Part shown: in pieces, positions 13,920 to 21,035 of the stretch | Numbering within the stretch: the first letter of the stretch is position 1 | Layout of the letters: every line of letters starts with the position of its first letter | Assembly (NCBI GenBank): GCA_964609655.1 | Contig: CAZSUA010000001.1 | Location: forward strand, 11,839 to 75,838 | Direction: 5' to 3' | DNA: 64,000 bases | From: an uncultured Polyangiaceae bacterium | GTDB lineage: Bacteria > Myxococcota_A > Polyangia > Polyangiales > Polyangiaceae | Notes under the pieces: generated by a model | Told to the model about the DNA's origin: nothing | Database searches by the model: none | The model's input: the letters and a program-made list of their open reading frames with translations, nothing else | Position numbers and translations under genes: made by a program

Positions 13920-16900
13920 GTGTCAACTTTGTTGACGGTGGGAGGGCGGACCATCCAACTCGACGCTACGATCGGGAGCGGGGCGACCAGCTTTGTCTTT
14001 CGGGCACACGACGTCGCCACAGCGGAACAGTTTGTACTGAAGGCGGGCCGCCGAGCGCAGGATGCTTCAGTATTCCGCAACGAAGCCGAGCGACATGCTT
14101 GGGTTTGCTGTCCGGAGATCATTCCACTCTTGGCCTTTGACCACGCCAACTGCGCGGCTTCACCTGCGAACGGAACGGAAGGGTCGATTGGGGGTGGTGC
14201 ACCACTGCTCTTGTTCCCCTGGTTGGACGGTGCGCCAGTTGGTTCAGAGCCGGTGGCAGGCGCAGCCAGCGCACAGACCCGAGCTGCGCAGACGCTTCAG
14301 GTTGCCTGGGATCTCGGTCGGGCACTCGATGAGCTCCACGAGCTTGGCCTGGCACACGGCGATATCAAGCCGGACAATGTGCTGTTAACCCGTAGTGGAA
14401 GCGCGCGGCTTTTGGATTTGGGTCAGAGCGGCGAGGCTGCTCAGTGGCTGCCGAGTGGGGGCACACCGCGCTATTTTGCTCCTGAAACCTTGGCTGGCGA
14501 AAATCGCGGTGAGGCCAGGGCGCGCGACCTATTCGCCCTTGGTTTGCTGCTCGCCGAGATTGCTGAGCCGGAGCTCGCAAAGAGCCACAATCCTCTAAAA
14601 AAGCTGAATCAAAAGCCACTTGAGGCGGGCCTCGCTTCTCTTGTCGAACCGCTCCTGCGCGAAAGCCCGAGCGCTCGCCCCTCTGCACGTTGGGTTTGGC
14701 AGCGTGCCGGTCAAAGGCTGGGCGTCTTCGAAGCGCCTGAAGCTGTGCGGAGCTGGCGTCTCCGCCGCGCTCGCGCAGCCTACTTGAACGCACGAAGTGC
14801 TGAGTTGCGAAGTGTCTGGGGAAGCAATTTGGAAGCGGACTTATCACCGGTAGAAAATGAGTGGCTCAAGGAGTTTTTGACTATCAGCGGTCAGGTTGGC
14901 GTCCTACCGGCTTTCGCGAAGCCAACGCCGCACGCACTCCGCCCGTTGAGCGCTGCGGGCCTTGAGGCCTTCTTGCTGCACCTGGTTGGGCCCGTCGCCA
15001 GCGATTGGCCAATTGGGCTCCTCGGTGCCGTCCCTGCAGTGCTTGAACGGGTCGTTGCCCTGCTGGAAACCACTGAGCCCTTGGCTCTGACGTTCTCGAT
15101 GTTGCAAGGGACTCGGGCAAGCGCTTCGCTCGCTGGTTCGGAGCTAGCTGCGAACGCTGGCAGCGCCGACGAGATGGTCGAACTCACGCTGGCGCTGGCG
15201 AGCGAAACTCAATCACTTTCCGCGCTCGCACGCGCTGAATTTCTGATTTCAGAAGGCAATGCTCCACCGACGCTGCTTGGGCTGGTGGCGCGCCGCTTGC
15301 GACTGAGCGGACAATTTGGCCACGCGTTAGTACTTCTCCAAGGCTCGAGCGCGCCAGGGCATCCGATCTTCCTTGCTGAAACTTATCGTCGCGCGAGGGA
15401 CTTCCCGAGTGCGCGGGCGAGCCTCTCGCGCCTCCAAGCAGAGGGTAGATCGCGCGCTCCGAGCGAAGAAGCGCAACTTAGGGCAACCTTGGCGCGCATG
15501 CTCCTCGACGAAGCTGAGCCGGAAAATGCCTTGAATTTACTGGTCGATGCTCCTCTGCACTCGGTCGTGTGGGAAACGCGCGCACTGATCGAGGCCGCTC
15601 TGGGCCAGGCTTCGCTCGCTCTTGAGTCTGCGTCGCGTGCCAAGGCAACCGCACGTGACGCCGAAGAACAAGCACGTGCAGAGGCTGTGCTCGGTTTGGT
15701 AGCCCATCAGCTGGGTGATTTTGAGCTCGAGCTCCAGTCCTTTCGTCGCGCGTCCGAGCACGCCGCGCGTGCGGGCGCAGTGATTGAGGAGGCGCACTAT
15801 TTGACCGGGGTGGCTGCGGCCAGTGTTCAAGTGGGTGCCTATGAGGGCGCTCAGAAAAGCGCCATTCGGGCACGTTTGCTGTTTGACTGGGCAGGGCGCG
15901 GGGGCTCCGCCGCTCGGGCTGTGCAAGCTGAAGCGGCAGTTTTTGCAGCCTTAGGAGCGATCGACGAAGCGGAAGGCTGTGCGGCGGATGCCGAGCGGCG
16001 CGCAAAATTGACCGGGGATGCCCAGTGTCGCGCGTACATTCATCTGACGCTTGCAGATATCGCTCGCGTCAGTCGGGGTGGGCGTGAACACGCAGAGCGA
16101 GCCCAACAACTGCTGGGCGCGGCGATCAGCGATGCCGATCAGGTTCGGGTTGCTGCCCGTGCCCTCCGGCATGGGGCACCCCTAGATATCCGGTCCATTG
16201 ACGTTCTGGCTCGGAGTTGTGCGGCCATGGATGCCTCGTTCGAATGGTGGGGGGCACGGGCCGTGCATGCTGAAAAAGCCAAGCACCCCAGCGCCTCCGC
16301 GTCGGTCATTGCGGAACTTTTGGCTCTCTCCACGGTCCGCGCTGCGGCGGGCGTGCGTGGGCCCGCGCTGGCGGCAGGGGCTCAATTGGCATCGGTACTC
16401 GGTGATGGCGAAGCAGCGCGTCGGTTGTTTGCGGCCGCTGGCGAAGCGGCGCGTCAGGTTATCCGCTTGGCGCCAACCTCGCTCGTTGCGAGAGTCGAAG
16501 CGATCCCATGGGTGGCGCGCTGCCAGGCGGTTCGCGAGCAAACACTTCTGCCCGAGCAGCTCTCGGATGTGGAGGGGCTGGTGCGTGCGCTCGGTGGCCG
16601 GGAGGATCTCCGACTCCAGTTTGAACGAATCCTGGATATGTTAGTGTTGTGGACGGGGGTTGAACGAGCGTTGCTGCTGCTGCCGGCACCCAATGGGAAG
16701 TTGATCGTGCGCTCTGCTCGCAACCTGGCGCGTACCGATCTGAATGGTCTGCAGCTTGAGCTGAGTCGCTCGCTGGCGCAGCGTGCACTCGATGAAGGGC
16801 AACCTGTGGTTGCAGTGGACGCTCAGTATGATTTGCCCGAGGCGCACGCCAGTGTGCACGCCCTGAAGTTGCGCAGTGTGCTGGCGGTGCCGCTGATTTC

Positions 16901-18110
16901 GCATGGCCAGAAGCTGGGTGTTGTCTATTTGGATGATCGCATCAAGCGTGGTGCTTTTGGACCTCAAGAGCTCGGCTGGGTGCGTGTGATCGCCAGCCTG
17001 GCAGCGGTGGCGTTGGCAGACACGCGAGCTCAACTCTTGCTCCGCCGCTCGCTGCGCCGTGCCGCGCGCGCCGAAGCGCGTGTGCGTGCGACGCTCGGGC
17101 AACGGGAAGCCGAACTCGATGCAGCACAAAGAGAGCTTGCGCTGGCGCGCAAGGGGCGCAGCACGCGTTACGCCTACGACGCCATTGTCGGCGAGAGTGA
17201 GGCCATTATGAGCATGCTCTCATTGATTGATCGGGTGGCCGGCGCCGACATCCCCGTGCTCATCGTCGGCGAGTCAGGCAGTGGCAAGGAGCTGGTTGCG
17301 CGTGCGTTGCACGTGAATAGCCCTCGAGCGAAGGGTCCTTTCGTTTCCGAAAATTGCTCCGCGATTCCGGAAACCTTGTTAGAATCGGCGTTATTTGGGC
17401 ACGTTCGCGGTGCTTTCACTGGCGCGACAAGCACTCGGGCCGGTCTGTTTGACGCCGCGGATGGCGGAACGCTCTTTCTTGATGAAATTGCGGAAATGAG
17501 CTTGGGCATGCAGACCAAGCTGCTGCGGGTTCTCGAAGATGGTCTCGTAAAGCCCGTTGGTTCCGAGCGTACGCGTAAGGTCAACGTGCGAGTTCTCGGG
17601 GCGACACATCGTGATCTAGAGGAATGGGTCAGCTCGGGGAGGTTCCGCAAAGATCTTTACTATCGATTGAATGTGCTGACGCTCAAGGTTCCAGCCCTCC
17701 GGGAACGCTCAGGTGACGTAATACTTCTGATCAAACACTTCATCAAACAATATTCTACGGATCGCCCTCGCAGGTTATCTCGGGGAGCCGAAGCAGCGCT
17801 CTTGTCGTATTCTTGGCCCGGCAACGTGCGACAACTCCAAAATGAGATCCGGCGTGCGCTCTTGATGGCAGATGACACCATCGAACTAGAACATCTGAGT
17901 CCACCCATCATCGGGGCCGCCCCTGGGGATGCCGCGCGCGCGGATTCGGTCAACCTGAAGGTGCGGGTGGATGCCATGGAGCGCCAGCTCGTTGGGCTTG
18001 CGTTGGAGCGAACCTCAGGCAATCAAACGCGCGCCGCGGAGATGCTGGGTGTTTCGCGCTTCGGGCTGCAGAAAATGCTAAAGCGCCTTGAAATCGACGC
18101 TAAAGGCTAG
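13920..18110 (+). CDS. Ser/Thr protein kinase domain fused to a helical/TPR-like region, a GAF domain, a sigma-54 AAA+ activator domain and a Fis-type HTH
   Basis: Kinase: IGSGATSFVF, FVLK, HGDIKPDNVLL, GTPRYFAPE. About 600 aa of Ala/Leu-rich helical repeats follow. GAF-like region around 16630-16950. AAA+: GESGSGKE (Walker A), GAFTGA, TLFLDEI. C-terminal HTH: GNQTRAAEMLGVSRFGLQKMLKRL. Confidence 0.88.
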   Translation: MSTLLTVGGRTIQLDATIGSGATSFVFRAHDVATAEQFVLKAGRRAQDASVFRNEAERHAWVCCPEIIPLLAFDHANCAASPANGTEGSIGGGAPLLLFPWLDGAPVGSEPVAGAASAQTRAAQTLQVAWDLGRALDELHELGLAHGDIKPDNVLLTRSGSARLLDLGQSGEAAQWLPSGGTPRYFAPETLAGENRGEARARDLFALGLLLAEIAEPELAKSHNPLKKLNQKPLEAGLASLVEPLLRESPSARPSARWVWQRAGQRLGVFEAPEAVRSWRLRRARAAYLNARSAELRSVWGSNLEADLSPVENEWLKEFLTISGQVGVLPAFAKPTPHALRPLSAAGLEAFLLHLVGPVASDWPIGLLGAVPAVLERVVALLETTEPLALTFSMLQGTRASASLAGSELAANAGSADEMVELTLALASETQSLSALARAEFLISEGNAPPTLLGLVARRLRLSGQFGHALVLLQGSSAPGHPIFLAETYRRARDFPSARASLSRLQAEGRSRAPSEEAQLRATLARMLLDEAEPENALNLLVDAPLHSVVWETRALIEAALGQASLALESASRAKATARDAEEQARAEAVLGLVAHQLGDFELELQSFRRASEHAARAGAVIEEAHYLTGVAAASVQVGAYEGAQKSAIRARLLFDWAGRGGSAARAVQAEAAVFAALGAIDEAEGCAADAERRAKLTGDAQCRAYIHLTLADIARVSRGGREHAERAQQLLGAAISDADQVRVAARALRHGAPLDIRSIDVLARSCAAMDASFEWWGARAVHAEKAKHPSASASVIAELLALSTVRAAAGVRGPALAAGAQLASVLGDGEAARRLFAAAGEAARQVIRLAPTSLVARVEAIPWVARCQAVREQTLLPEQLSDVEGLVRALGGREDLRLQFERILDMLVLWTGVERALLLLPAPNGKLIVRSARNLARTDLNGLQLELSRSLAQRALDEGQPVVAVDAQYDLPEAHASVHALKLRSVLAVPLISHGQKLGVVYLDDRIKRGAFGPQELGWVRVIASLAAVALADTRAQLLLRRSLRRAARAEARVRATLGQREAELDAAQRELALARKGRSTRYAYDAIVGESEAIMSMLSLIDRVAGADIPVLIVGESGSGKELVARALHVNSPRAKGPFVSENCSAIPETLLESALFGHVRGAFTGATSTRAGLFDAADGGTLFLDEIAEMSLGMQTKLLRVLEDGLVKPVGSERTRKVNVRVLGATHRDLEEWVSSGRFRKDLYYRLNVLTLKVPALRERSGDVILLIKHFIKQYSTDRPRRLSRGAEAALLSYSWPGNVRQLQNEIRRALLMADDTIELEHLSPPIIGAAPGDAARADSVNLKVRVDAMERQLVGLALERTSGNQTRAAEMLGVSRFGLQKMLKRLEIDAKG

Positions 18111-18290: not shown

Positions 18291-18362
18291 GAGGCAGCGC
18301 GAGTAGTAATGAGGCAGCGCGAGTTTAGTGAGGCAGCGCGAGTTTAGTGAGGCAGCGCGAGT
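18291..18362. repeat. four tandem copies of GAGGCAGCGCGAGT with a 19-20 bp period
   Basis: Copies at 18291-18304, 18311-18324, 18330-18343 and 18349-18362, separated by agtaat or ttagt. They lie in a gap downstream of both convergent flanking genes. Confidence 0.9.
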
Positions 18363-18427: not shown

Positions 18428-18483
18428 TAAGAATTGGCTAAGCGCCAACGGGAGTTAAGAATTGGTTAAGCGCCAACGGGAGT
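18428..18483. repeat. 28-bp tandem duplication (1 mismatch) that includes the last codons and stop of the minus-strand gene 18466..19053
   Basis: taagaattggCtaagcgccaacgggagt (18428-18455) against taagaattggTtaagcgccaacgggagt (18456-18483). Confidence 0.9.
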
Positions 18484-19053
18484 GAGGAGCCGTTCGATTT
18501 CTTGCCATTCGGTGGGGCTGAGATCAGGAGTGAAGCGAGTGAGGCGTGCTAGGACATCGGCGACGGGCGGGTGCACGTCAGGTGTTTCCTCGGCTGGAGT
18601 GACGTACAGCGAGGCGCACGTCAAATGGATGAACCCAATGGGTTGGAAGCGAGATTCCTCGAGCAGCTGGAGTGCTATTCGCCAGCTGCCCTTTTCCATG
18701 AGCTCCTTGCAATGGCGGCAGTGGGCCCGCCCGCTGGGTGCGCGTTCCAGGCGCGAAATGCGAGACAAACGGGGAAAGCGAACGCCCGCTTGGGCGAGGG
18801 CTTCGAGAACCGCCTTATCGGGAAACTCGCCAGGATAGCCAGCTATAGTTGCTAAGAATTTTTCTGGGCGCATGCAGGCTGCGCATGCGGGATGAAACCA
18901 TAGCCGCGATTCTCCGTCGCCATACGCGTTCGGCACCGTCTCGCCAAAGCGTAGCGAACCCTTTTCGATCGCGAGGCCACAGCCGCGGCACTTGGCACGC
19001 CCGCTCGGGGCGGCTTCGATCACGTCCGTCACTGCTGGGCCTCCAAACGCCAA
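18466..19053 (-). CDS. protein with two PARP-type zinc fingers and no catalytic domain
   Basis: Finger 1: PSGRAKCRGCGLAIEKGSLRFG...WFHPAC, which is CX2C-X28-HX2C. Finger 2: PSGRAHCRHCKELMEKGSWRI...FIHLTC, which is CX2C-X27-HX2C. Both follow the zf-PARP pattern (KSGRAKCKKC..I.KGELRIG...WYH..C). Confidence 0.8.
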   Translation of the reverse strand: MAFGGPAVTDVIEAAPSGRAKCRGCGLAIEKGSLRFGETVPNAYGDGESRLWFHPACAACMRPEKFLATIAGYPGEFPDKAVLEALAQAGVRFPRLSRISRLERAPSGRAHCRHCKELMEKGSWRIALQLLEESRFQPIGFIHLTCASLYVTPAEETPDVHPPVADVLARLTRFTPDLSPTEWQEIERLLTPVGA

Positions 19054-19295: not shown

Positions 19296-21035
19296 TTACG
19301 CTGCCACTTCGGCTTCGCCTTCGAGCTCCCGAAATAGCGGGCCGAGCTCGGGACGTGAGCGGAGTGGCTCGCAAAAGCGCGAGGCGAGCTCGAGCAGCTC
19401 GCTTTCCAAGGAGCCTGCTGTTCGGCCAAGGCTTTCCAGTAGGGTTTGGTACGAATTCTGATCGCGTTCGATGCTCTCTTCTTGGCTCGCCATGGCCTGG
19501 CGCAACTGGAGGATTTGAAACTCCAGATCTTCGACCTCGCTCTTGCTGGCGTTGCAGGCGGCTTCGGCCTGGCCGAAAGCTTCTTTGGCTTGGCACCAAC
19601 TTTTCATCAACTCTGCACTCGCGTGGTAGGCGGCAGCGAGCTCAGTGTACGGTTCGAGGAAGCCAGAGCGGCCTTCCCAGAACATGATTTGCTGGTGTTC
19701 TGTGCGGAATGAAAGCCGCGCCTCGTCGATCGCTGCGCTCAACTGCTTACCGATGGCGAGGGCGTCTTTGAGCTTGTCGCGGGCGCTGCTGGCGTCGAGG
19801 CCGAGCGCGTGAACCGCGTGCCCGATGCGTTGCCGCATTTCGCGGCCGCTGGCGTCCACGTTCTCAAGTTTGCGTTCGTGGGCCATGGCTTCTTCGCGCT
19901 GGCTTGCGATGCGGAGAACTAAGGATTCAATGTTTTGCAAGAGCTCAGCCTGCACGCCGGGTGTTGTTGTTCCGTACGCTCGCTGGAGCATTTGGCCAAA
20001 AAGCTCCACGCGCTTGCCCCACAGATCGATCGCAACTGGTGGAAGACTCTTGGATATGGGGCGGGCACTCTCAGGAGCCTCGGAGAGATCTCGCGGTATG
20101 GGGGCTCCGAGCGATTCGGTGATCGCGACCAAGTCCTTGTACAGCCGATGGGCATCAACAGGACGATCCTTCGGATCCTTCGCCATCAGCTCCAGGATCA
20201 GCCTGTCTAGAGCTTCGGGGAGGTTTGGCTCGAGGCTGCGTACGCTCGGCGCCGGCTCACTCAAATGTTTGATGAAAAGAACCGGGATTTGCTGGGATTC
20301 GAACGGTAGGCGCCCGCACAGCATCTCGAACAAAATGATCCCGACTGCATACAGATCGGCGCTTGGCCCCGCATCGATCGACGTGATGCGCTCGGGCGCC
20401 ATGTATTGAGGAGTCCCGAAAACTTCCCCAGCGCCGGTCAAACGTGCATCCTGCATCGAACGTGCGATGCCGAAATCGAGGAGTTTAACCACTTCGCTGT
20501 CGAGCCCGAGATCCTGCGCCAAGAAAATGTTCTCGGGCTTGAGATCGCGGTGAATCACTTGAAGGTCGTGGGCGCGTGCGAGCGCGCGTGCGATCTGGAT
20601 CCCAATCGCCAACGCGCGTGGCACGGCAACTTTTCCACGCTCAAGCAACTCGGCGAGCGTCTCCCCTTCGAGCAGCTCCATCACGAGGTAGACGCAGCCG
20701 TCGTCTGTTTCGCCTTGGTCGAAGATTTCTATGATGTTCGGATGGGCGAGCTTTTGGGCAGCCTTTGCTTCACGCCGAAAGCGTTCGCGCATCACTTCGT
20801 TCCTGGCGAACGACTCGTTAAGGATCTTGATCGCGCAGAGCCTATCGACCAGGCGATGCCTTGCCGCGTAGACAGTGGCCATTCCGCCCTGGCCCAGCAC
20901 GCTTTCGATCTGATACCGCCCTGCTAATACGGTCCCGATCCGTTCATCTTGGATGGGCTCAAGCGTGGCACCGTCGACGAAGCATGTGCCACGATCATCT
21001 GGATACTTCAGCTTGCAGAGCGGGCAGGCCTTCAT
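19296..21035 (-). CDS. Ser/Thr protein kinase with an N-terminal Cys-rich mini-motif and a long C-terminal coiled-coil region
   Basis: Kinase motifs GQGGMATVY, CAIKIL, HRDLKPENIF, DFGIA and GTPQYMAPE. The N-terminus is MKACPLCKLKYPDDRGTC. The C-terminal ~290 aa are helical and Glu/Leu/Ala-rich. Confidence 0.9.
   Translation of the reverse strand: MKACPLCKLKYPDDRGTCFVDGATLEPIQDERIGTVLAGRYQIESVLGQGGMATVYAARHRLVDRLCAIKILNESFARNEVMRERFRREAKAAQKLAHPNIIEIFDQGETDDGCVYLVMELLEGETLAELLERGKVAVPRALAIGIQIARALARAHDLQVIHRDLKPENIFLAQDLGLDSEVVKLLDFGIARSMQDARLTGAGEVFGTPQYMAPERITSIDAGPSADLYAVGIILFEMLCGRLPFESQQIPVLFIKHLSEPAPSVRSLEPNLPEALDRLILELMAKDPKDRPVDAHRLYKDLVAITESLGAPIPRDLSEAPESARPISKSLPPVAIDLWGKRVELFGQMLQRAYGTTTPGVQAELLQNIESLVLRIASQREEAMAHERKLENVDASGREMRQRIGHAVHALGLDASSARDKLKDALAIGKQLSAAIDEARLSFRTEHQQIMFWEGRSGFLEPYTELAAAYHASAELMKSWCQAKEAFGQAEAACNASKSEVEDLEFQILQLRQAMASQEESIERDQNSYQTLLESLGRTAGSLESELLELASRFCEPLRSRPELGPLFRELEGEAEVAA

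Follow-up and report, generated by a model that had tools for sequence, protein, structure and literature searches.

In the 64,000-nt stretch of DNA analysed here (the window), a genuine open reading frame on the reverse strand (18466..19053) codes for a protein with two consecutive PARP-type zinc fingers (zf-PARP), which is 195 aa long when counted from its TTG codon. The features of the locus are as follows.

18466..19053, reverse strand: open reading frame of the double zf-PARP protein; TTG at 19053, stop codon at 18466-18468.
18466..19032, reverse strand: likeliest coding sequence (188 aa), from GTG 19032-19030, judged by start context, homologues and the database copy P0002.
19040..19044, reverse strand: Shine-Dalgarno-like GGAGG with a 7-nt spacer to the GTG; a match to the consensus only.
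18778..19038, reverse strand: first zf-PARP fold, residues ~6-92 (Pfam stretch 13-62; 3od8_F, Z 9.0).
18883-18990, reverse strand: zinc ligands of finger 1 (C22, C25, H54, C57).
18481..18777, reverse strand: second zf-PARP fold, residues ~93-191 (3ode_A, Z 8.5), taking in a supposed C-terminal tail.
18616-18720, reverse strand: zinc ligands of finger 2 (C112, C115, H143, C146).
18428..18483, no strand assigned: 28-nt tandem duplication in two copies, covering the final codons and the stop codon.
19296-21035, same strand as the zf-PARP gene (reverse): flanking Pkinase gene.
13920-18110, convergent to the zf-PARP gene: flanking Pkinase-GAF-sigma54-activator gene.

The true start codon of the zf-PARP gene is probably GTG 19032, with a product of 188 aa, since GGAGG lies upstream, the N-termini of homologues align at this position, and P0002, a database copy with 99% identity to the window protein, is itself 188 aa long. 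A promoter scan found no sigma-70-like promoter near the gene of this ~20-kDa protein, and the three terminator-like sites returned by a terminator scan are within shuffled expectation. The 28-nt tandem duplication leaves the protein unchanged; it is also present, with a degenerate second copy, at the related locus L039.

The original prediction of two PARP-type fingers was borne out by a profile-HMM search: the Pfam family PF00645 (zf-PARP) matches the protein in two stretches with 70.7 bits (E=1.8e-19), far above chance and above the curated gathering cutoff of 39.3 bits. All zinc ligands are present. Read from the translation, they are C22-X2-C25-X28-H54-X2-C57 in finger 1 and C112-X2-C115-X27-H143-X2-C146 in finger 2, exactly the spacings that had been proposed (CX2C-X28-HX2C and CX2C-X27-HX2C). 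None of the eight ligands varies among the 22 sequences of one alignment or the 41 of another; in an alignment of 73 sequences, seven of them are invariant and H54 is conserved in at least 90%. No other family was significant in Pfam and NCBIfam profile searches and, therefore, the protein has no catalytic domain, as had been foreseen.

An AlphaFold model of the protein alone (pLDDT 93, pTM 0.87) has the finger fold of PARP1 and LIG3: in a Foldseek search, each of the 26 matches at E<=0.001 was a finger of PARP1 or LIG3, and the two highest-ranking ones were structures of PARP1 bound to a nick or single-strand break. With VIA-align, the predicted model scored Z 6.1-9.2 for the 19 PARP1/LIG3 entries, and no unrelated fold exceeded Z 4.4. 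Among proteins of known structure, the closest in sequence is PARP1 F1F2 (E ~2e-10); finger 2, taken separately, matches PARP1 with E=2.7e-6. PARP1 Zn1 (3od8_F) aligns with model residues 6-92 (Z 9.0) and Zn2 (3ode_A, residues 110-200) with model residues 90-191 (Z 8.5 over 87 residues). The latter alignment includes what had been taken for a C-terminal tail of ~35 aa; this segment belongs to the second finger fold, whose end it forms, and is confidently helical over residues 161-190 (block pLDDT 88-96). According to the model, both fingers pack into one compact, rigid unit; an NHEJ-linked homologue (L095; pLDDT 94.7, pTM 0.89) is predicted to fold in the same way. The fingers of PARP1 are flexibly linked, and the finger arrangement of the window model fits DNA-bound PARP1 F1F2 loosely upon whole-model superposition (rmsd 6.1-8.0 over 163-167 residues).

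Some residues of PARP1 that handle DNA have counterparts in the bacterial protein. R35 and R125 align with R34 of PARP1, which we take to be a DNA-contact residue. R19 and R109 align with R18 and R122, the residues by which PARP1 grips the phosphate backbone (PMC8150716, in part). Three of these arginines (R19, R35 and R125) are invariant in the alignment of 73 sequences. The base-stacking F44 of PARP1 is aligned with G45 of finger 1, adjoined by the aromatic Y44. In finger 2, the stacking loop did not align.

In animal cells, the PARP-type finger detects broken DNA, and it is counted among the break sensors of eukaryotes. The bacterial family is widespread and uncharacterised, with 339 relatives in species-representative genomes of many phyla (taxon labels are the titles of MAG records, and mis-binning is possible), and our literature searches found no published description of it. 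Its members are currently annotated as “hypothetical” or “PARP-type zinc finger-containing protein”. In the window's own genome, PF00645 matches only the two fingers of the window protein, and it matches none of 14 control genomes. Elsewhere in the window's taxonomic order, zf-PARP is fused to Pkinase plus AAA_16 (L031), DUF4132, ankyrin, HEAT and LRR, and one MarR-zf fusion came from a search for longer forms, in which a blank is weak evidence. Given these fusions to signalling and scaffold domains and to MarR, the zf-PARP module is not tied solely to repair. Among the best 150 representatives, there is no fusion to a ligase or a polymerase; the long matches found there are LRR, 5-FTHF cyclo-ligase and HEAT proteins and multi-finger arrays. 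A C-terminal “PGLAKT”-plus-acidic tail was considered as a partner-binding motif and rejected: it is confined to a Polyangiaceae subfamily (L087 and L105 were left out of this analysis), and it cannot be the link to NHEJ, because neither the window copy nor any NHEJ-linked copy has it.

Neighbourhoods of 8 kb were compared for 81 loci, i.e., the window and 80 relatives. The window has no match to Ku or LigD and no repair neighbour. A conserved operon partner was sought there and rejected, the neighbours being the two kinase genes, a gene for an SH3 protein, an ORF without a family match and a gene for a DUF4340 protein. All-against-all clustering of the neighbour ORFs yielded no universal neighbour; the GC3 filter and the ORF heuristics behind these ORFs may miss genes: of the zf genes themselves, only 55 out of 81 passed the filter.

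At 12 of the 81 loci, an ATP-dependent ligase (LigD or a three-domain ligase) lies within 8 kb of the zf gene, often together with Ku, where ~0.6 loci would be expected by chance (Poisson estimate; binomial p ~1e-12). The ligase gene is directly upstream on the same strand in seven of these 12. The gene orders are:

Gene order A: Ku <-> LigD-zf.
Gene order B: Ku-LigD <-> RecB-like nuclease/SF1 helicase-zf.
Gene order C: LigD <-> Ku-DUF72-zf.
Gene order D: three-domain ligase-zf.

At the complete loci of order A, the stop codon of LigD and the start codon of the zf gene touch or overlap. On the family tree, which comprises 75 of the 81 rows (L055, L061, L068 and L073, at contig ends, and L087 and L105 were excluded), the linked state changes six times, at least five of these changes being forced by supported branches. 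The Myxococcota half of the tree, in which the window copy is found, has two linked rows out of 40, both from one MAG. Outside Myxococcota, ligases and Ku are the sole recurrent functional neighbours. Near-identical copies at L108 and L118, which carry different phylum labels, suggest that whole clusters move horizontally. The other 69 loci are unlinked, and no DNA-repair family was detected at E<=1e-5 among the 128 nearest ORFs at the loci of 68 unlinked relatives.

The association with Ku extends to whole genomes. In a 71-genome sample of the family to which L095 belongs, all seven zf-positive genomes have Ku, as against one of the 64 others (Fisher p=6e-9; such co-occurrence p-values overstate the case, given that related genomes do not count as independent and that NHEJ varies with genome size and GC content). 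In six of the seven, Ku is on the same contig, at 2.5-8 kb from the zf gene. These zf-positive genomes measure 3.3-5.0 Mb, and many that are both zf-negative and Ku-negative are as large, up to 5.9 Mb. In the window's taxonomic family, Ku occurs in 11/11 zf-positive genomes versus 5/13 others, and in a third family of seven genomes in 2/2 versus 0/5. Where the zf gene is unlinked, Ku is found elsewhere in the genome in 14 cases out of 15. NHEJ has been reported in 22% of bacterial genomes, its presence tracking genome size and GC content (PMC7719229, in part). Across the window's order, four of the 24 genomes with a strong zf match (E<=1e-15) are without a Ku match (G053, G074, G116 and G124), as are 12 of the 35 zf-matching genomes in all; conversely, 55 of the 78 Ku-positive genomes have no zf match. 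In the window's own genome (G000), Ku and LigD Prim-Pol each gave two matches, located on C294 and C346: this genome has two Ku-LigD loci, on contigs other than the one that carries the zf gene.

These data bear on the earlier suggestion that the protein is a sensor or adaptor whose partner is encoded next door or elsewhere. Next door in the window there are kinases and no repair partner. The 12 of 81 loci at which relatives adjoin LigD, Ku or a ligase, the co-occurrence with Ku and the Ku/LigD genes on other contigs of the same genome lend the suggestion support from comparative genomics.

Judging from sequence, predicted fold and gene context, we favour, at a probability of roughly 55%, the reading that the window protein is a catalytically inert sensor of DNA nicks or ends that serves Ku/LigD repair, similar to the finger of LIG3 but separately encoded. 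Each finger would grip a strand discontinuity (a nick, a gap or a duplex end) irrespective of sequence, by means of the conserved arginine “grip” and a hydrophobic/aromatic loop, by analogy with PARP1 Zn1/Zn2 and the LIG3 finger. In this way, the break would be marked or held in place for end joining by Ku/LigD or for another ATP-dependent ligase, and the machinery served in the window's own genome would be the one encoded on the other contigs. The protein would amount to the nick-sensing finger of LIG3, supplied in trans instead of in cis. Binding to DNA breaks, contact with LigD or Ku and an effect on ligation are what we infer here. That a two-finger protein is conserved, repeatedly lies behind LigD or another ligase and co-occurs with Ku suggests that, in some bacteria, end joining is supplemented with a dedicated module for the sensing of breaks. 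More tentatively, and at somewhat less than even odds, the zf proteins could be an unrecognised third component of end joining in many soil and sediment lineages, a sensor acting in trans that recruits or stimulates LigD or the three-domain ligase.

Other explanations have to be set against this sensor role. The protein could be a general DNA binder, structure-specific or non-specific, such as a nucleoid-associated or regulatory protein, that is not specially connected with NHEJ; in that case, a shared ecology, large GC-rich genomes and passive carriage on mobile repair islands would account for its association with Ku. This is compatible with the 69 unlinked loci, the existence of a MarR-zf fusion, the near identity of L108 and L118 under different phylum labels, and the published correlation of genome size and GC content with the presence of NHEJ (PMC7719229, in part). 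We nevertheless consider it unlikely in view of the Ku distribution in the family of L095 (7/7 versus 1/64), where zf-positive genomes are no larger than many negatives, of linkage in four gene orders at no fewer than five positions in the tree, of a zf start that overlaps the LigD stop codon, and of Ku in 14 of the 15 unlinked genomes. A rather improbable alternative is that the fingers sense DNA or its damage on behalf of signalling by Ser/Thr kinases or STAND proteins rather than for repair, in which case the two flanking kinases would be the partners in the window. The position of the gene between these kinases, the fusion to Pkinase and AAA_16 in L031, the kinases directly adjacent in L039 and L048 and the fusions to DUF4132, ankyrin, HEAT and LRR scaffolds all fit. 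However, kinases occur within 8 kb at 15 of 81 loci (19%), against ~21% expected by chance (86 Pkinase matches in the window's 5.9-Mb genome), and no functional neighbours other than ligases and Ku recur outside Myxococcota. Moreover, L039 is no independent observation, as it is 92% identical to the window copy, while the kinases of L048 have 35-38% identity with those that flank the window gene, a match at the level of domains between differing architectures, and their presence is therefore not conserved synteny.

Very improbable, in our estimation, is a role away from DNA altogether, with the fingers binding protein, RNA or a nucleotide polymer or acting as a structural zinc scaffold. It would be in keeping with the glycine at the PARP1 F44 position in finger 1, with the rigid coupling of the fingers in the predicted models (pTM 0.87 for the window protein, 0.89 for the L095 homologue) and with the poor superposition on DNA-bound PARP1 F1F2; but the grip arginines are kept in both fingers (R109 occupying the position of PARP1 R18), an aromatic residue stands beside the F44 position, and the recurrent neighbours (LigD, Ku, three-domain ligase and nuclease-helicase) all act on DNA ends.

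Of the known systems, the Zn1-Zn2 pair of human PARP1 (PDB 2n8a, 4av1, 9mi8, 3od8, 3ode) is the best match to the window protein in both sequence and structure: it is likewise a tandem CCHC pair of family PF00645, and equivalents of its R18/R122 exist in both bacterial fingers. In contrast to PARP1, the window protein lacks Zn3, WGR and the catalytic domain (PF00644), and is thus incapable of ADP-ribosylation signalling. WGR had no match in the window's own genome either, in a search whose control worked; nor had PF00644, a weak result since its control also matched nowhere.

The finger of eukaryotic DNA ligase III (LIG3; PDB 1uw0) has the same fold as the window protein (Z 6.1; sequence E=5e-4); homologous to those of PARP1, it forms a nick-sensing module together with the DNA-binding domain of the ligase (PMC4333375, in part). 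A LIG3-like situation is seen at L110 and L067, where the zf gene is directly downstream of a separate gene for an ATP-dependent ligase, with N, M and C domains in L110 and only the C-terminal domain visible in L067. Taken together, the ligase and zf genes of these loci presumably amount to the domain content of LIG3. Whereas LIG3 has a single finger in cis with its ligase, the bacterial protein has two, on a separate polypeptide, and the usual neighbour of its family is LigD; as to a LIG3-type zf-DBD-nucleotidyltransferase-OB fusion, the window protein has no ligase domain.

Bacterial NHEJ is described as a minimal two-component system, consisting of Ku and LigD alone. The ligase module of LigD is not known to have an N-terminal DNA-binding domain. 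Ku and LigD are the genomic partners of the zf relatives, and loci of both types, zf and Ku-LigD, exist in the window's own genome; many Ku-positive genomes are without the zf protein, which can therefore be at most an accessory of NHEJ. LigD is a feeble sealer of nicks on all-DNA substrates, according to a review (PMC8656161) in which the words “zinc”, “PARP” and “accessory” do not occur; “PARP” and “zinc” are likewise absent from a comparative study (PMC7719229). The idea of a break-sensing module bears on how LigD finds its substrate and on the origin of the PARP1/LIG3 finger, and it offers a working hypothesis for a family now labelled “hypothetical”. If the role as a third component is true, bacterial end joining would resemble the PARP1/LIG3 break-sensing pathway of eukaryotes more closely than has been assumed, and the bacterial family would be a candidate for the evolutionary source, or an early recipient, of the finger.

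The plant DNA 3′-phosphatase ZDP and other multi-finger proteins combine zf-PARP with an end-processing enzyme. In these, the enzyme domain is present in cis, unlike in the window protein, which has none. One representative of 1376 aa carries 11 zf-PARP fingers and a PNK3P fragment.

The zinc-finger (zf) gene and the genes on either side of it are laid out in the window as follows:

13920-18110, + strand (convergent, downstream of the zf gene): Pkinase-GAF-sigma54 activator-HTH_8 protein, 1396 aa, family match
18466..19053, - strand: zf-PARP protein ORF, 195 codons, TTG start
19296-21035, - strand (same strand as the zf gene, upstream): Ser/Thr kinase, 579 aa, family match

The zf protein matched PF00645 (zf-PARP) in two stretches (E=1.8e-19, 70.7 bits; curated cutoff 39.3), which bears out the original prediction of two PARP-type fingers. 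The predicted spacings of X28 and X27 agree exactly with the zinc ligands read from the translation: C22-X2-C25-X28-H54-X2-C57 in finger 1 and C112-X2-C115-X27-H143-X2-C146 in finger 2. Beyond PF00645, no Pfam or NCBIfam family was significant in the protein, as expected from the claim that it lacks an enzymatic domain; NCBIfam has no model for this family. The closest solved-structure sequences are the PARP1 F1F2 constructs 4av1 and 2n8a (about 2e-10), followed by single PARP1 fingers and the DNA ligase III finger (1uw0, 5e-4), and finger 2 as a lone query matched PARP1 at 2.7e-6. The window's genome carries a single zf-PARP copy. Translation more likely starts at the GTG at 19032 than at the TTG, given the GGAGG preceding it (7-nt spacer), the aligned start of homologues across many phyla and the length (188 aa) of a database protein with 99% identity. 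Two tandem repeats lie at the 3′ end: a 19-nt unit (x 3.7; 18291-18362) in the intergenic region, and a 28-nt unit (x 2; 18428-18483) covering the final codons and the stop codon. In L039, the locus of the closest relative, the second 28-mer copy is degenerate and the 19-mer array is absent.

The AlphaFold model of the window protein (input alignment of 73 sequences) is confident along the whole length (pLDDT 93, pTM 0.87). Zn1 of PARP1 (3od8_F) superposes on model residues 6-92 (Z 9.0) and Zn2 (3ode_A) on residues 90-191 (Z 8.5, 87 residues, rmsd 3.5), so that the presumed C-terminal tail of ~35 aa in fact belongs to the finger 2 fold; the top unrelated fold reached Z 4.4. Of the Foldseek matches at E<=0.001, 26 in all, every one is a PARP1 or LIG3 finger, led by two entries of PARP1 bound to a single-strand break or nick. 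By this model, the protein therefore consists entirely of two full zf-PARP folds. The homologue encoded at L095 in another genome (50% identity) gave pLDDT 94.7 and pTM 0.89, and the high pTM in both models suggests that the two fingers are fixed together as a single unit. None of the eight zinc ligands varies in alignments of 22 and 41 sequences; with 73 sequences aligned, seven remain invariant and H54 is conserved at 90% or more, and R19, R35 and R125 are likewise invariant. R19 and R109 align with R18 and R122 of PARP1, termed a “phosphate backbone grip” in a passage of PMC8150716. The base-stacking F44 of PARP1 is aligned with G45, adjacent to the aromatic Y44: this feature is kept only loosely.

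A word-indexed protein search returned 1474 candidates of 107-342 aa, of which 626 were called relatives (E<=0.001); PF00645 is present in all 120 listed among them, annotated, where named, as “hypothetical” or “PARP-type zinc finger-containing protein” of Polyangiaceae MAGs. Among 1.84 billion 50%-identity representatives, a profile search found 129 matches at E<=1e-30 and 489 at E<=1e-10. The survey of phyletic distribution placed relatives in many phyla, in 339 stretches (one genome per species). By record title, i.e., depositors' MAG labels, the best 80 of the 339 include Polyangiaceae/Myxococcota, Woeseiaceae, Steroidobacteraceae, Arenicellales, Lysobacterales, Burkholderiales, Acidobacteriota, Eisenbacteria, Krumholzibacteriota, Methylomirabilota, Verrucomicrobiia and Rhodothermales; their identity to the window protein is mostly 44-61%, with 86-91% for L039 and L055. 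We found no description of bacterial zf-PARP proteins, or of a tie to NHEJ, in full-text literature whose coverage mostly excludes subscription journals, which does not prove the family absent from print. In part of Perina et al. 2014 (PMC4245714), bacterial PARPs are mostly WGR plus PARP domains and the finger is mentioned in a figure legend only; the words “zinc” and “PARP” are absent from the NHEJ papers PMC7719229 and PMC8656161. The family represents a genuine zf-PARP module, yet one that is free-standing, doubled, rigid by prediction, bacterial and associated with Ku and LigD.

This association emerged when the candidate ORFs of 80 relatives' loci and the window were clustered to find common neighbours. 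There was no universal neighbour gene among the clusters of the 81 loci; one cluster proved to be LigD (phosphoesterase, ligase and Prim-Pol domains) and another Ku. A tblastn search free of the ORF filter placed LigD, Ku or both within 8 kb at 11 of the 81 loci. At L067, a contig-edge fragment, of which the C-terminal domain of an ATP-dependent ligase alone is visible, ends 6 nt before the zf gene, bringing the linked loci to 12 of 81, against ~0.6 expected by chance under a simple Poisson estimate (binomial p about 1e-12).

Gene orders at the 12 linked loci
A: MerR-TPR and Ku, divergent from LigD and zf (L095, L098, L081; edge fragments L089, L063)
B: Ku and LigD, divergent from a TM0106-type RecB-like nuclease/SF1 helicase fusion and zf (L086, L108, L118)
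C: LigD, divergent from Ku, DUF72 and zf (L059, L114, one MAG)
D: ATP-dependent ligase and zf (L110, L067)

The ligase is the immediate upstream gene on the same strand in seven of the 12, and in complete order-A loci the LigD stop and zf start codons touch or overlap. The L110 ligase has N, M and C domains and scores as an NCBIfam NF002868 equivalog (757 bits vs 641). Mapped onto a maximum-likelihood phylogeny of 75 family members, linkage requires six changes, at least five of them forced by supported branches (bootstrap range 5-7); it is therefore not one chance event passed on by descent. The mixed-phylum half of the tree contains ten of the 12 linked rows; the window copy belongs to the Myxococcota half, where the two linked rows come from one MAG. 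No repair family was found at E<=1e-5 in the nearest ORFs on either side of the zf gene at the 68 other loci (128 ORFs).

The near-identical zf proteins of L108:5813-6340 and L118:8007-8528 (tree branches 0.05 and 0.07), from MAGs titled Acidobacteriota and Verrucomicrobiia, share order B, a sign of recent horizontal transfer of the entire cluster or else of mis-binning. Two LigD/Ku-DUF72-zf loci occur in one MAG, L059 and L114:6924-8500; in the latter, the zf frame diverges toward its end and DUF72 is broken into two ORFs, suggesting a decaying duplicate or an assembly error. Between LigD and zf, L086:4221-7907, L118:3631-8007 and L108:1485-5813 encode a protein of 1229-1459 aa (stop-to-stop frames) uniting a TM0106-family RecB-like nuclease (TIGR03491, RNase_H_2) with an SF1 helicase, possibly another end-processing partner of NHEJ in these bacterial lineages.

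Ku and the zf gene also co-occur across genomes. In a 71-genome sample of the L095 family (zf-positive: E<=1e-10), Ku was found above the cutoff in 7/7 zf-positive genomes vs 1/64 others (Fisher p=6e-9); in six of the seven, a single contig carries Ku and the zf gene 2.5-8 kb apart. The figures are 11/11 vs 5/13 in the window's taxonomic family (p=0.002), 2/2 vs 0/5 in a third family (7 genomes) and, in the window's order, 20/24 strong-match genomes (E<=1e-15) vs 58/127 others (p=7e-4), with 10/10 at orthologue grade (E<=1e-30). Ku lies elsewhere in 14 of 15 non-myxobacterial genomes with an unlinked zf gene, the exception being a 2.9-Mb genome lacking a completeness figure; the binomial p is 7e-9 at a background of 22%, the share of about 6000 complete genomes with NHEJ stated in one part of PMC7719229, and 8e-4 at 52%, the rate in the window's order. 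These p-values overstate the case, since the relatives are not independent; the counts include the unpublished-flagged genomes G123, G181 and G231. PF00645 was found in 0/14 control genomes. The reverse direction fails: the zf query was unmatched in 55 of 78 Ku-positive genomes of the window's order, so the protein would be an accessory rather than a core part. Matches to Ku and to LigD Prim-Pol, two of each, lie on contigs C294 and C346 of the window's genome (95% complete, 530 contigs), which has no WGR match; a PARP catalytic domain was not matched there either, in a search whose control likewise matched nowhere.

We give a probability of roughly 55% to the reading of the window protein as a putative break sensor or end holder serving Ku/LigD or a three-domain ligase, and somewhat more to the narrower reading of it as a binder of DNA discontinuities. 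The two-finger unit would bind nicks, gaps or duplex ends irrespective of sequence and, once bound, would sense the break or hold the ends for these enzymes. In function, the nearest precedent is offered by the finger of DNA ligase III, which is homologous to PARP1's and works with the ligase DNA-binding domain as a nick-sensing module (PMC4333375); order D has the same domain content, divided between two genes. The LigD ligase domain seals all-DNA nicks poorly (a section of PMC8656161), which makes an added sensor plausible.

Three rival explanations are retained in view of the counter-evidence: 69 of 81 loci are unlinked (the window copy and 68 others), four strong zf-positive genomes of the window's order have no Ku match, the finger is promiscuous in that order, with many fusion partners, and no zf-PARP/ligase fusion occurs among the best 150 representatives. 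The window itself, where no repair gene was seen among the neighbours (the more distant being an SH3_3 protein, an ORF without family match and a DUF4340 protein) and LigD and Ku queries had no tblastn match, could suggest a signalling input to kinases, as the zf gene lies between two kinase genes and the finger is fused to Pkinase and AAA_16 in the window's order. From the 86 Pkinase matches in the window's 5.9-Mb genome, however, a kinase is predicted within 8 kb of ~21% of genes, vs 15/81 family loci observed, so that the adjacency looks like chance; at L048, the flanks resemble the window's, but kinase identity (35-38%) is confined to the domain cores and the architectures differ. We regard the kinase explanation as distinctly improbable. 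A general DNA-binding protein with a merely ecological Ku association, consistent with the unlinked loci and the one MarR-zf fusion found, is unlikely too, though less so: in the L095 family, many zf-negative genomes are at least as large as the zf-positive ones (3.3-5.0 Mb), yet the two groups differ sharply in Ku. A ligand other than DNA seems the most remote of the three.

The downstream window protein at 13920-18110 consists of an N-terminal Ser/Thr kinase, a long middle without family match, GAF, a sigma-54 activator AAA+ domain and a Fis-type HTH. Fusions of the finger in the window's order join it to DUF4132 (L030, L035), HEAT (L035), ankyrin repeats (L028), LRR-type regions (L026, L027), Pkinase and AAA_16 (L031), or a ~900-aa region without Pfam match (L023, L024, L036, with L025 alike by sequence). 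In E. coli, MolR joins DUF4132 to a WGR domain; the DUF4132 fusions would, if this holds, parallel the PARP1 domain set. In the protein-representative library, P0144 (1376 aa) combines 11 zf-PARP stretches with a polynucleotide kinase 3′-phosphatase fragment.
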